Shown here: positions 1 through 2,187 of the stretch, piece after piece
Layout: each line of letters opens with the position of its first letter
How positions within the stretch are numbered: position 1 is the stretch's first letter
DNA from: Thermodesulfobacteriota bacterium
GTDB taxonomy: Bacteria; Desulfobacterota_D; UBA1144; Nemesobacterales; N074bin48
Length of the DNA: 42,665 nt
Reading direction: 5' to 3'
NCBI GenBank assembly: GCA_041572575.1
Contig: JBFFSH010000018.1
Coordinates: forward strand, 1 to 42,665
Made by a program: the position numbers and the translations under genes
The notes under the pieces: generated by a model
The model's input: only the letters and a program-made list of their open reading frames with translations
Databases searched by the model: none
Told to the model about the DNA's origin: nothing

Positions 1-60
1 AACTTCTGCGTGTCTTAAATATCTTATTATTTGCTCTGGCGTGTAACGCTTCCTGGGCAT
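1..60 (-). CDS. IS3-family transposase OrfA, N-terminal fragment (partial at window edge)
   Basis: Manual translation gives MPRKRYTPEQIIRYLRHAEV, a typical IS3 OrfA HTH N-terminus. RBS AGGAGG lies 8 nt upstream. Not in the ORF track. Confidence 0.88.
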   Translation of the reverse strand, partial: MPRKRYTPEQIIRYLRHAEV

Positions 61-139
61 TTCCCTTGCCTCCTATTCATAGGGTTTATTACCTAAAATT
101 CTAACTTGTAATCTGGTACTATTATAGGGGGGAAGGTCA
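1..139 (-). mobile_element. IS3-family insertion sequence (IS407-like), left end; continues beyond the window
   Basis: Minus strand from 139 reads TGACCTTCCCCCCTATAATAGTACCAG, a 5'-TG IS3/IS407-type terminal inverted repeat. It is followed by AGGAGG (74-69) and an orfA start at 60. Confidence 0.9.
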
Positions 140-924
140 CCTGAAAACCCAATTTGAATATTCTTGTTGGTAAAGGGCTTAACCTTTATTCCGGGAGAAA
201 TATTGAGTACAGATTCGCCATCCTCTTCTCCGTTTAGTGCAACCTCTCCGTCAAATTCCAAAAGCGCCTCAATACTTGGAGTTAGATGATATAGAAGTGA
301 AACGTTATAACCAAACTCATCACTCTCATCTTTACCGTCATCCTGGTTCACAGGAAAACCAAGTGATAGAAATGAGACAAGTTCAAAATCATGATACTTA
401 TAACCCATTGATAAAAACGGCTCTATTTCAATAATATGGTCGCTTCCTATTCCTCTTTCATCGTCGCCTGAGGGTATGCCAAATTCTAACCCTCCACCCA
501 GAAGCAATCCATACTCTTCAAATATATATGTGGCAAATTTAAGCCCCACTTCAATATTATTAAAGTGATCTTCAGTTTCGCCGTCATCAGGATCAACAAA
601 CGTATAAGGCACCCCTACTTCGATGCTGAAGTTTCTTGAAAAAGCATACTCTGCTTCAAGCTGCAAAGAGTGTTCATTAAGCCCTCCGCCTTCCCCATCT
701 TCTTCCTCATCTCCATGTCCTTCACCCTCAATATCTTTAAATATATAGTCAAGCCTTATCTTTGTATCAGGCGATGGTGACTCAGTTATCAATGGATGAG
801 CAAAATGCAGCCCCTGCTTGTGACTCCCTCTGTCATCTGCTAATAGCAAATTTGAGCCAGCAGCAATAAAAACAGCAAATAAAAACAAAGTAAATATAGT
901 TTTTGATTTTAATAAATTAAACAT
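73..924 (-). CDS. Outer-membrane beta-barrel transporter-like protein (MetA-pathway/phenol-degradation-like), His/acid-rich; C-terminus replaced by IS sequence, probably disrupted
   Basis: Signal peptide, HKQGLHFAH, an acidic loop and alternating amphipathic strands. The last 21 aa (DLPPYNST...KPYE) are read from the IS end, and the terminal aromatic strand is missing. Confidence 0.7.
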   Translation of the reverse strand: MFNLLKSKTIFTLFLFAVFIAAGSNLLLADDRGSHKQGLHFAHPLITESPSPDTKIRLDYIFKDIEGEGHGDEEEDGEGGGLNEHSLQLEAEYAFSRNFSIEVGVPYTFVDPDDGETEDHFNNIEVGLKFATYIFEEYGLLLGGGLEFGIPSGDDERGIGSDHIIEIEPFLSMGYKYHDFELVSFLSLGFPVNQDDGKDESDEFGYNVSLLYHLTPSIEALLEFDGEVALNGEEDGESVLNISPGIKVKPFTNKNIQIGFSGDLPPYNSTRLQVRILGNKPYE

Positions 925-928
925 AGTA

Positions 929-1001
929 CTCCTCCCCTTTAATTATTTATGAATTTTATAAAGCAAGAATTTTATATTTCAGGAAAGGACTGTTGGAGGA
1001 G
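929..1001 (-). promoter_or_regulatory. Putative SD/anti-SD mRNA stem coupling the leader ORF to the barrel gene
   Basis: mRNA CUCCUCC (1001-995, in the Ser-Pro-Pro codons) pairs with GGAGGAG (935-929, the RBS). CCUUU (988-984) pairs with AAAGG (940-936). Total 12 bp with a 6-nt bulge. Confidence 0.55.
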
Positions 1002-1386
1002 ATTTATTTCCGAAAGCACCTAATGTATTTTTGATTAATATTAAGTTTTCTGAAGTTCTAAAAAAAGCGGCTTTAAGGTCCGGGTTAATAAAAGTAGATT
1101 TAAATAAAACAAATTTAAGTATTCCTCTGATATTCTTACTACAGCAAAAACATATCTTTTCACAGCATTCTTCATCGTCTGATGATTGGAATGTATTGAG
1201 GATAAGTTCTTTAAGAATGGAATGATTTACCTGCTCATGACAGCCTTCAACAATGGCAGTTGTGTTATCCTGAGTTATTACGGGTATGTAGGACTTACTA
1301 AAACCTGATACAGTAAGAAGAAGTAAAAAAATAATCAGTGTTAGAGAGAAACACTTATATAGCAGTTTTTTTGAACCATACAGCAA
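979..1386 (-). CDS. Secreted Cys-rich leader protein, DUF2946/CruR/CutF-like architecture
   Basis: TTG start, N-terminal hydrophobic signal, CH and CCEKICFCC cluster, C-terminal KSPP. Ends 54 bp upstream of the barrel gene. Confidence 0.6.
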   Translation of the reverse strand: MLYGSKKLLYKCFSLTLIIFLLLLTVSGFSKSYIPVITQDNTTAIVEGCHEQVNHSILKELILNTFQSSDDEECCEKICFCCSKNIRGILKFVLFKSTFINPDLKAAFFRTSENLILIKNTLGAFGNKSPPTVLS

Positions 1387-1461
1387 TTAACAAGCCCCTT
1401 TATATAAAACAATATATAAAATATGACGTTTATAATGGTAAAAAGATTCTAAGATAGAGAA

Positions 1462-2187
1462 TCAATCCTCTAATTTCTTTTCCAGCTCATTTACAAGAGT
1501 GGTTGCAACTAAATAGTTTCTGTACCATTTCTGGTCGGCAGGTATCACATGCCATTTGGCTTTTTTATTAGTCTTACGGATAATTTCATCGTAGTGGTCA
1601 ATATATTCACTCCACTGTTTATTTACCTCAAAATCCTTTGGATTATATTTCCACCTTTTTTCCGGATCGTTTTTTCTTTCCATTAGTCTTTCAAGTTCTT
1701 CTTCCTGTGACACGTGCAAAAAGAATTTAAAAATTATGGTGTTATTTTCTTCGATTAAAAGCTCTTCAAATGTGTTTATAAATTTACACCTTCCGGCAAA
1801 CTGCTTGTCCGAAATCGAGTCATTAATCTTTGGCACTATGAGGTCTTCATAATGTGAGCGGTTAAATATATGGATCATTCCCTTTGGTGGTACATGCTCA
1901 TGAATTCGCCAGAGAAAATCATGAGCAAATTCTTCCGCTGTTGGCACCTTCCATGCTTTTACAAAACATCCCATGGGATTTACTCCTGTAAAAACACTCC
2001 TTATGGTGCTGTCTTTTCCAGCAGCATCAAGTCCCTGCAGGACTATAAGAACAGAGTGCTTTTTGTTTTTGTATAAACTGTGCTGGAAACTCTGAAGTCT
2101 CTTATAAAGGAGTTCAGTCTTATACTCAAGATCATCTCGGTCGGCTTTTTTAGGCGCTCTTGTATTTATATCTTTTAAGTGCGGCAT
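1462..2187 (-). CDS. ppk2: Polyphosphate kinase 2 family (class III-like polyphosphate:nucleotide phosphotransferase)
   Basis: LQGLDAAGKD Walker A, HDFLWR, FNRSHYED, PADQKWYRN. Confidence 0.93.
   Translation of the reverse strand: MPHLKDINTRAPKKADRDDLEYKTELLYKRLQSFQHSLYKNKKHSVLIVLQGLDAAGKDSTIRSVFTGVNPMGCFVKAWKVPTAEEFAHDFLWRIHEHVPPKGMIHIFNRSHYEDLIVPKINDSISDKQFAGRCKFINTFEELLIEENNTIIFKFFLHVSQEEELERLMERKNDPEKRWKYNPKDFEVNKQWSEYIDHYDEIIRKTNKKAKWHVIPADQKWYRNYLVATTLVNELEKKLED

Follow-up and report, generated by a model that had tools for sequence, protein, structure and literature searches.

The mechanism class of metal-sensing leader, stalled ribosome and hidden Shine–Dalgarno sequence (SD) has already been published for CutF of Rhodobacter capsulatus (cutFOG; PMC9973294, bioRxiv 10.1101/2025.02.05.636593) and CruR of Bordetella pertussis (Bp2923; PMC9426467), and the locus presented here adds no new principle to it. 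In these reports, CutF is described as a small exported leader with a CxxxC motif and C-proximal prolines (PPP) that do not belong to a RAPP motif. A short spacer separates it from a copper-induced multicopper oxidase gene, whose SD is hidden by a stem described as intergenic, and transient stalling at the PPP is argued to suffice (bioRxiv 2025.02.05.636593). CruR heads an outer-membrane transporter and carries an N-terminal export signal, an upstream semi-conserved Cys and a CxxC motif that lies 45 residues before RAPP; lengthening by five residues is reported to impair regulation (PMC9426467). Arrest of CruR has been shown (PMC12992588), as has Rho termination, and its spacer spans 162 nt. 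ApdA, ApdP and ApcA (PMC10951233, PMC10987492, PMC12992588), like the leader considered here by prediction, are small exported upstream ORFs with an xxPP motif near the C-terminus and an SD-hiding stem, but they precede sec or yidC genes and monitor secretion. The Arg of RAPP stacks in a 23S pocket (PMC10951233), and in all three of these leaders it is irreplaceable: all 19 Arg substitutions abolish arrest, and Ser at the second motif position is only partly permissive (PMC12992588). Other first residues do occur in the RQH family, as Lys does here, and HAPP, QAPP and TGPP are known among its candidates (PMC10987492); KAPP does not appear in the main text of PMC10987492 or PMC12992588. In E. 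coli, hydrophobic or aromatic residues after Pro-Pro are reported to have given no EF-P pause (PMC4140641).

Anatomy and conservation of the leader

The window, meaning the whole 42,665-nt stretch that was analysed, lies at the beginning of contig C18; the genome spans 2.6 Mb at 37% GC, and its named relatives assign it to Candidatus Dadabacteria. The 135-residue ORF with a CH pair and a CCxxxCxCC cluster that the sequence-only reading had described was recovered as such, with C49-H50 and C74, C75, C79, C81 and C82 at the expected places (Table 1). Two of its descriptions required adjustment: the "signal peptide" comprises a hydrophobic stretch (Kyte–Doolittle ~3.0 in windows starting at residues 13–17) behind a positively charged N-terminus, and the KSPP motif is present (K128–P131) but not terminal, because the tail continues with TVLS before the stop. 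The TTG start is unchanged in all seven aligned loci.

Table 1 Features of the leader–barrel locus in window coordinates
Feature	Position	Strand	Remark
End of multicopy insertion-sequence-like element in barrel 3' end	1..139	.	Same 139 nt at many contig ends
Outer-membrane barrel gene, native part, ~codons 1–261	140..924	-	Predicted FapF/COG4313 fold
Intergenic spacer, 54 nt, A/U-rich	925..978	-	53–59 nt in six close relatives
Extended SD of barrel gene, AAAGGGGAGGAG	929..940	-	AGGAGAGGAG core in six close relatives
Leader ORF, 135 aa, TTG start	979..1386 (1386->979)	-	K-type, unannotated Dadabacteria CutF/CruR-like family
Anti-SD element B, post-Pro codons including CCUUU	982..990	-	Predicted main SD partner in two relatives with weakened element A
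K128-S-P-P131 (AAA TCT CCT CCA)	994..1005	-	Putative pause site, four codons 5' of stop
Anti-SD element A, CUCCUCC in Ser-Pro-Pro codons	995..1001	-	Exact complement of GGAGGAG at 935–929
45-residue linker (ruler)	1006..1140	-	Length-fixed, sequence mostly variable
Cys cluster C74-C75-x3-C79-x-C81-C82 (CCxxxCxCC)	1141..1167	-	Putative metal or disulfide sensor
Cys49-His50	1237..1242	-	Aligns with CP[ST]H motif of R-type sister family
Hydrophobic segment, ~residues 12–27	1306..1353	-	Predicted Sec signal or signal anchor, from hydropathy
Weak RBS AAAGGGG	1395..1401	-	8 nt 5' of leader TTG, by sequence

A profile search returned 28 homologues of the leader, most of them 135 aa long and one 99% identical to the query. 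NKSPP is present in 28 of the 29 alignment rows, that is, in every complete row, the 29th being truncated, and R[SA]PP is absent from all 29. In the same alignment C49, C75, C79 and C81 are invariant and H50, C74 and C82 are at least 90% conserved, and the linker from the last cluster position to the Lys measures 45 residues in 27 of 28 rows and 46 in the other. Estimated from five DNA sequences, pN/pS was 0.26 over residues 31–92, 0.90 over residues 93–126 and 0.31 over the tail. An exhaustive search of 1.84 billion representatives yielded only six clusters, of which three were new and end in KAPP or KSPP. Judged from this pattern of substitution, the leader is a real gene under selection, with the anatomy of a ruler. 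The homologues therefore bear out the conserved leader, Cys cluster, xSPP motif and SD-hiding codons of the sequence-only reading, with the reservation that some orthologues have no Cys cluster.

Neither Pfam nor NCBIfam assigned the leader to a meaningful family. Its AlphaFold model is unstructured (pLDDT 37.8) and too poor for use, apart from a low-confidence helix at residues 3–26. Structure matches in the ESM Atlas all fell below a TM of 0.45 and are not usable, and a feature search there scored clusters of CzcI (PF28244) and of DUF6769 at 0.93, but the shared features numbered only 103 and 90 out of 256. A known riboswitch was rejected, since Rfam gave no match in 850–1500 at E≤1. The promoter scan was uninformative (four sites against 3.6 expected), and no terminator was found. 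A PPK2-family polyphosphate kinase gene lies directly upstream of the leader (1462–2187, minus strand), and ORFs that match it in size and distance are found upstream of the leader in L071–L074 and L076; a link to polyphosphate–metal handling would be a guess.

In architecture, the locus shares with CutF a small Cys-bearing leader (exported, by prediction, here), C-proximal prolines without RAPP, a predicted stem that hides the next gene's SD, a short spacer and the presence of EF-P in the genome. The leader agrees with the testable CutF-like filters (Ozturk et al. 2023) in its length of 135 aa, Pro-Pro at 130–131 and the 54-nt spacer; the SD-shielding stem is present by prediction, with no covariation within the clade. 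The two differ in that KSPP replaces PPP, the CH pair and CCxxxCxCC replace CxxxC, the anti-SD is formed by the Ser-Pro-Pro and following codons rather than by an intergenic stem, and the target is a predicted 12-stranded barrel, probably for uptake, rather than an oxidase. With CruR the leader shares a predicted N-terminal export signal, an upstream semi-conserved Cys, a position ahead of the gene for a (here predicted) outer-membrane protein and a Cys motif (C79-F-C-C82) exactly 45 residues before the C-proximal xxPP, counted to K128. In contrast to CruR, Lys-Ser stands in place of Arg-Ala, with the Lys invariant and neither RAPP nor the Arg of RAPP arrest present, the spacer is 54 nt rather than 162 nt, and SD sequestration before a non-TonB barrel is predicted where CruR has Rho termination. 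The profile PF11162 (DUF2946/CruR; gathering cut-off 23.7 bits) did not match the leader at E≤1, any of 16 aligned leaders, or any protein of this genome at E≤10. The likeness to CutF and CruR drawn in the sequence-only reading is retained for architecture, spacing and xSPP, and does not extend to PF11162 membership or RAPP. In the accessible portions of the literature on CutF/CruR leaders and arrest peptides, this family, the KSPP motif and a leader-controlled COG4313 barrel were not found, and the supplement text covered from PMC9426467 (accession and taxonomy rows) and PMC9973294 contains no Dadabacteria or Phenol_MetA entry; relatives may be present in the 5,334-protein list of Ozturk et al. 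or in the source data of PMC12992588.

Predicted pairing between leader codons and the barrel SD

In agreement with the sequence-only reading, CUCCUCC (1001–995) is the exact complement of the ribosome-binding site GGAGGAG (935–929), which lies 4 nt 5' of the barrel ATG (924). The 12-bp stem of that reading is only partly retained: the 7-bp CUCCUCC–GGAGGAG helix has a pairing probability of 0.64–0.99 across five folding windows, whereas the remaining 5 bp (CCUUU/AAAGG) are split from it by a 6-nt bulge and have a pairing probability of ~0.2–0.35. Pairing of the SD with the Ser-Pro-Pro codons is likewise predicted on folding, but the 131-nt region is not more stable than its shuffles (z −0.44), and one minimum-free-energy fold pairs the SD with the post-Pro-Pro codons instead. 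By chance, a perfect 7-nt complement occurs within 150 nt upstream of 8 of the 114 GGAGG-led genes of this genome, and the SD opening energy is at least as high in 16 of the 114. Since the 7-nt match alone is not far beyond chance, the case for an anti-SD rests on conservation across loci.

To this end, each leader tail was compared with 300 synonymous recodings. The native tail–SD pairing falls in the best 10% for 39 of 52 distinct pairs (median percentile 0.04; 0.09 for the window), a count that includes L103 and L144, which are probably wrong-frame ORFs; in the R family 16 of 29 pairs do so, eight loci being shared with the larger set, and as the loci are kin these counts are not independent samples. 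The paired register follows the SD, with UCUCCUCC over Ser-Pro in family f7, CCUCCUU over Pro-Pro-x in family f2 and CGUCUCC three codons later in Gemmatimonadota. The SD core is predicted to be hidden in all seven K-clade loci, and compensatory substitutions are absent from helix A. Two of these loci, L071 and L072, use CCC for the first proline, and there the predicted SD partner is instead the stretch of codons after Pro-Pro (P 0.63 and 0.97). The predicted anti-SD is thus conserved in function across clades, not by covariation.

Placing a 28-nt ribosome footprint at Pro-Pro lowers the computed SD opening energy from 13.3–17.1 to 3.3–7.3 kcal/mol in five relatives (L072–L076; drop of 6–12) and by 3.5 kcal/mol in L071. 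The corresponding change in the window is from 8.8 to 7.1 kcal/mol (1.7), and a footprint at the stop codon gives 6.5 kcal/mol; the stop-codon footprint is predicted to free the SD about as well as the Pro-Pro footprint.

The barrel gene and the distribution of related leaders

An intact relative of the barrel (L071) was modelled as a 12-stranded barrel (pLDDT 90.7), and the best Foldseek matches of the predicted fold are Pput2725 (4RL8) and FapF (5O65–5O68), with E values of 3e-10 to 3e-9 and TM scores of 0.62–0.67. This FapF/COG4313 fold upholds, as a prediction, the small non-TonB barrel that the sequence-only reading had named as the target. Identity to the COG4313/SphA-type Pput2725 and FapF (Pfam PF13557) is only 11–13%, and relative to them the barrel family adds invariant polar and His residues and a metal-gene neighbourhood. 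Weak PF13557 matches were obtained for six of eight close homologues, the window protein falls below the PF13557 cut-off, and the PDB holds no sequence relative. Invariant His, Glu, Asp, Lys and Arg residues are seen across the family; polar and His positions fall within an N-terminal HFxHP segment and close to the C-terminus, and many of the homologues begin with a His-rich stretch. A GTDB scan with the single barrel sequence gave no match and an alignment-based scan found homologues; they occur in records named Gemmatimonadota, Acidobacteriota, Planctomycetota, Alphaproteobacteria and others. Metal-transport-related genes, mostly for copper, account for 16 of 69 selected neighbours of the family (PCuAC 2, CopC/CopD 3, cupredoxin 2, CusB-like 1, AcrB-type 2, CbtB 1, CDF 2, ArsR 2 and TonB receptor 1), and in f2 PCuAC lies directly behind the barrel. 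None of these neighbours is found in the K clade, where ppk2 and small unannotated ORFs give no metal clue. The barrel is probably an uptake channel.

In this assembly the barrel ORF (73–924) is interrupted, its last ~21 codons being supplied by the multicopy repeat end at 1–139, which has ~20–30 times the single-copy depth in runs X10, X15 and X16. The true last codons of the gene are found on contig C126 (L191) behind the end of a different multicopy element (1–137), and the two insertion-sequence-like ends break the gene 35 nt apart. Run X10 crosses both insertion junctions and run X1 crosses that of C126; in run X16 a single 331-nt contig carries both gene parts, 35 nt apart, and X15 likewise has the ends uninterrupted. 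Because interrupted and uninterrupted forms are both seen across runs, the interruption is a strain-level state. It deletes roughly the final strand and a half, together with the terminal aromatic residue; the channel is probably inactive in this strain and the output of the leader probably lost. Introns removed from RNA were considered, since the uninterrupted end was seen only in RNA-labelled runs. This explanation was set aside because similar element ends lie on both sides of the contig breaks, interrupted junctions occur in the same runs and the runs are DNA-like: two RNA-labelled runs have flat depth across intergenic DNA and records up to 103 kb. Several repeats of this kind occur in the genome, and contig C137 carries an IS1595 transposase. 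On L191 (410–1160), the barrel gene is followed by genes for small proteins, predicted to be exported, in which a Cys/Asp-rich CTDGxDNDGD motif recurs; the one scanned has no Pfam match.

The leader is not confined to the K-type family. Leaders located before distant barrel paralogues align with it over the full length (hhalign 90.7%, E 1.3e-6), and the profile of this R-type family matches 37 of 120 genomes of the class, this locus included. The R-type tail is RSPP or RAPP in all 30 loci inspected. Of 13 genes scanned 3' of R-type leaders, four are TonB receptors, as is CruR's outer-membrane transporter, five match PF13557 weakly and four have no match. A tree was drawn from 23 R loci out of 30 and 12 K proteins out of 31. 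In this set the spacing between CxC and the motif is 46 for 33 of 35 leaders (R-type 22/23, K-type 11/12), and the tree separates the two subfamilies (100/99); it is unrooted and the subfamilies were gathered with different profiles, so it does not show the ancestral state. NCBIfam names none of seven leaders scanned, and neither subfamily matches Pfam DUF2946.

Viewed from the barrel, an ORF with a PP tail (RSPP 9, TGPP 8, RAPP 5, KSPP 5 and others) precedes the gene at 40 of the 89 distinct loci that have enough upstream DNA, compared with 3 of 1348 long ORFs in this genome, a control that was not GC-matched; by the rule used, the leader is absent from the other 49. Among 23 leaders scanned, four match DUF2946 weakly and a fifth, L044, exceeds its cut-off, so that in one alphaproteobacterial genome the barrel family follows a true DUF2946 leader. 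The closest barrel orthologues in another family, f2, have RSPP leaders with a single conserved Cys; in L011–L015, L032 and L035 these form leader–barrel–PCuAC operons in which RSPP and the predicted anti-SD are kept and the lone Cys lies 78 residues upstream. Gemmatimonadota leaders (L054, L059, L061, L063, L137 and L148) carry CPMH...CxCxGxC and, at a spacing of 44, a PxTGPP tail without Arg; the anti-SD three codons after Pro-Pro fits a GGAGACG SD, and CopC-CopD lies upstream in L059 and L137. A profile comparison of the present leader with the Gemmatimonadota/DUF2946 leader set gave no match. Cys-rich leaders of ~190 aa that end in RGPP or RAPP precede the same barrel family in L050 (Pyrinomonadaceae), L115, L116, L121, L123 and L138, and the four scanned have no Pfam match. 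In the L170 region (G018:C3:9951-11391), two leader-family matches ~1.2 kb apart suggest tandem leader-controlled genes.

Proposed mechanism and alternatives

On sequence grounds the locus is a conserved leader–barrel cassette built like CutF and CruR: coding conservation, fixed spacing, invariance of the motif and predicted SD pairing across clades together point to a leader of this type. We consider it fairly probable that the leader hides the barrel SD, that a ribosome dwelling near KSPP frees it, and that metal, probably copper, or oxidation at the Cys cluster sets the dwell. In such a mechanism, the hydrophobic N-terminus would bring the nascent leader into Sec, and once Pro130-Pro131 reach the catalytic centre the linker of fixed length would hold the Cys cluster just past the exit tunnel or translocon, as follows from general tunnel length. 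The dwelling ribosome would cover both anti-SD elements and so free the barrel SD in the 54-nt spacer downstream, and metal binding, with copper as the presumed ligand, or disulfide formation would alter the pull on the chain and hence the dwell. Since the barrel is importer-like and the spacing equals that of CruR, metal would most likely shorten the dwell and turn the barrel off; CutF shows that the opposite sign of metal response is possible (bioRxiv 2025.02.05.636593). A universal sensor role is disfavoured by the single-Cys f2 leaders and by the 49 of 89 loci without a leader.

With Lys at the Arg position, a robust RAPP-type arrest is not expected. KSPP is most likely a weakened, transient pause like that proposed for the CutF PPP, and the pause would probably be modest and sensitive to force and EF-P, not a locked RAPP arrest. 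An altered peptidyl-transferase centre was rejected at the level of motifs, as the 23S peptidyl-transferase motifs of this genome match the canonical ones. The genome encodes EF-P and Rho, and a second leader in it (L151) keeps RAPP; given canonical 23S motifs and a RAPP leader in the same genome, no ribosome change explains the Lys. It is doubtful that KSPP is instead a Lys-based arrest on a canonical ribosome, aided by the invariant preceding Asn, its codons doubling as an anti-SD arm, and that this widespread FapF/COG4313-fold barrel family comprises the first TonB-independent, leader-controlled copper uptake channels. If this were true, such an arrest would break the rule of an irreplaceable Arg in RAPP-type motifs.

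The same leader and anti-SD switch could also work without metal sensing, the dwell being set by Sec pulling or disulfides, as in a monitor of secretion or periplasmic redox state, or by plain coupling to passage or termination on the leader. Such a switch would account for the opening of the SD by a termination footprint as well as by a Pro-Pro stall, for the location of element B in the last codons, for f2 leaders that keep RSPP and the anti-SD with one Cys, and for the weak stalling expected of KSPP; CutF's own model involves disulfides (bioRxiv 2025.02.05.636593). It is nonetheless considered unlikely, as the Cys spacing is fixed at a CruR-like distance in two divergent subfamilies, copper genes recur near the barrel family, including PCuAC behind the f2 barrel, and plain coupling needs no invariant Pro-Pro. 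That the spacing equals CruR's is also what would be seen if the main output of a metal-sensing leader were Rho-dependent termination before the barrel, as in CruR, with SD pairing secondary. Rho is encoded in the genome, and in the window and five relatives C outnumbers G over the final ~130 nt of the leader. However, most of this C excess is due to the anti-SD codons, the spacer is 54 nt against 162 in CruR, and SD pairing, which termination does not need, is kept in shifting registers, which leaves this output improbable.

A very unlikely alternative is an ordinary small exported Cys-rich protein, a chaperone or partner of the barrel, that acts in trans, with the SD complement a by-product of CCN codons in an AT-rich genome and the Lys the result of AT drift in a decayed motif. 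In its favour, residues 31–92 are under purifying selection, chance alone gives 7% of SD-led genes a complement of this kind, and Arg AGA to Lys AAA is a single transition. In contrast, the linker is fixed in length yet near-neutral and is followed by a conserved tail (pN/pS 0.31), the leader model lacks structure (pLDDT 38), the native codons outdo synonymous recodings, the architecture recurs before unrelated transporters, and the Lys never reverts in 28 K-family sequences.

For the preferred metal- or oxidation-responsive switch, the KSPP and RSPP sister clades with the same Cys ruler offer a natural comparison of the need for Arg with weak, force-sensitive pauses. The locus would be a clear case of a peptide motif and an RNA switch that share the same codons, with a backup arm. 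By guilt of regulation, it also provides a lead that an uncharacterised barrel family may carry metal across the outer membrane without TonB. CutF/CruR-like leaders are extended to Dadabacteria, in which none of those scanned had been caught by Pfam or NCBIfam.

The second unannotated leader of this genome (L151, G000:C6, 10930–11283, minus strand) encodes 117 aa with HTH...CSAC...RAPPVFS, has no Pfam or NCBIfam match, and has Pro codons complementary to the next SD. The next gene, 61 nt downstream, encodes a predicted outer-membrane protein of 461 aa, and behind it come ZnuA, an ABC ATPase and an ABC-3 permease; three ORFs upstream of the leader resemble, by eye, a CbiM/Q/O-type transporter. 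L151 is a candidate Zn/Ni/Co-sensing leader.
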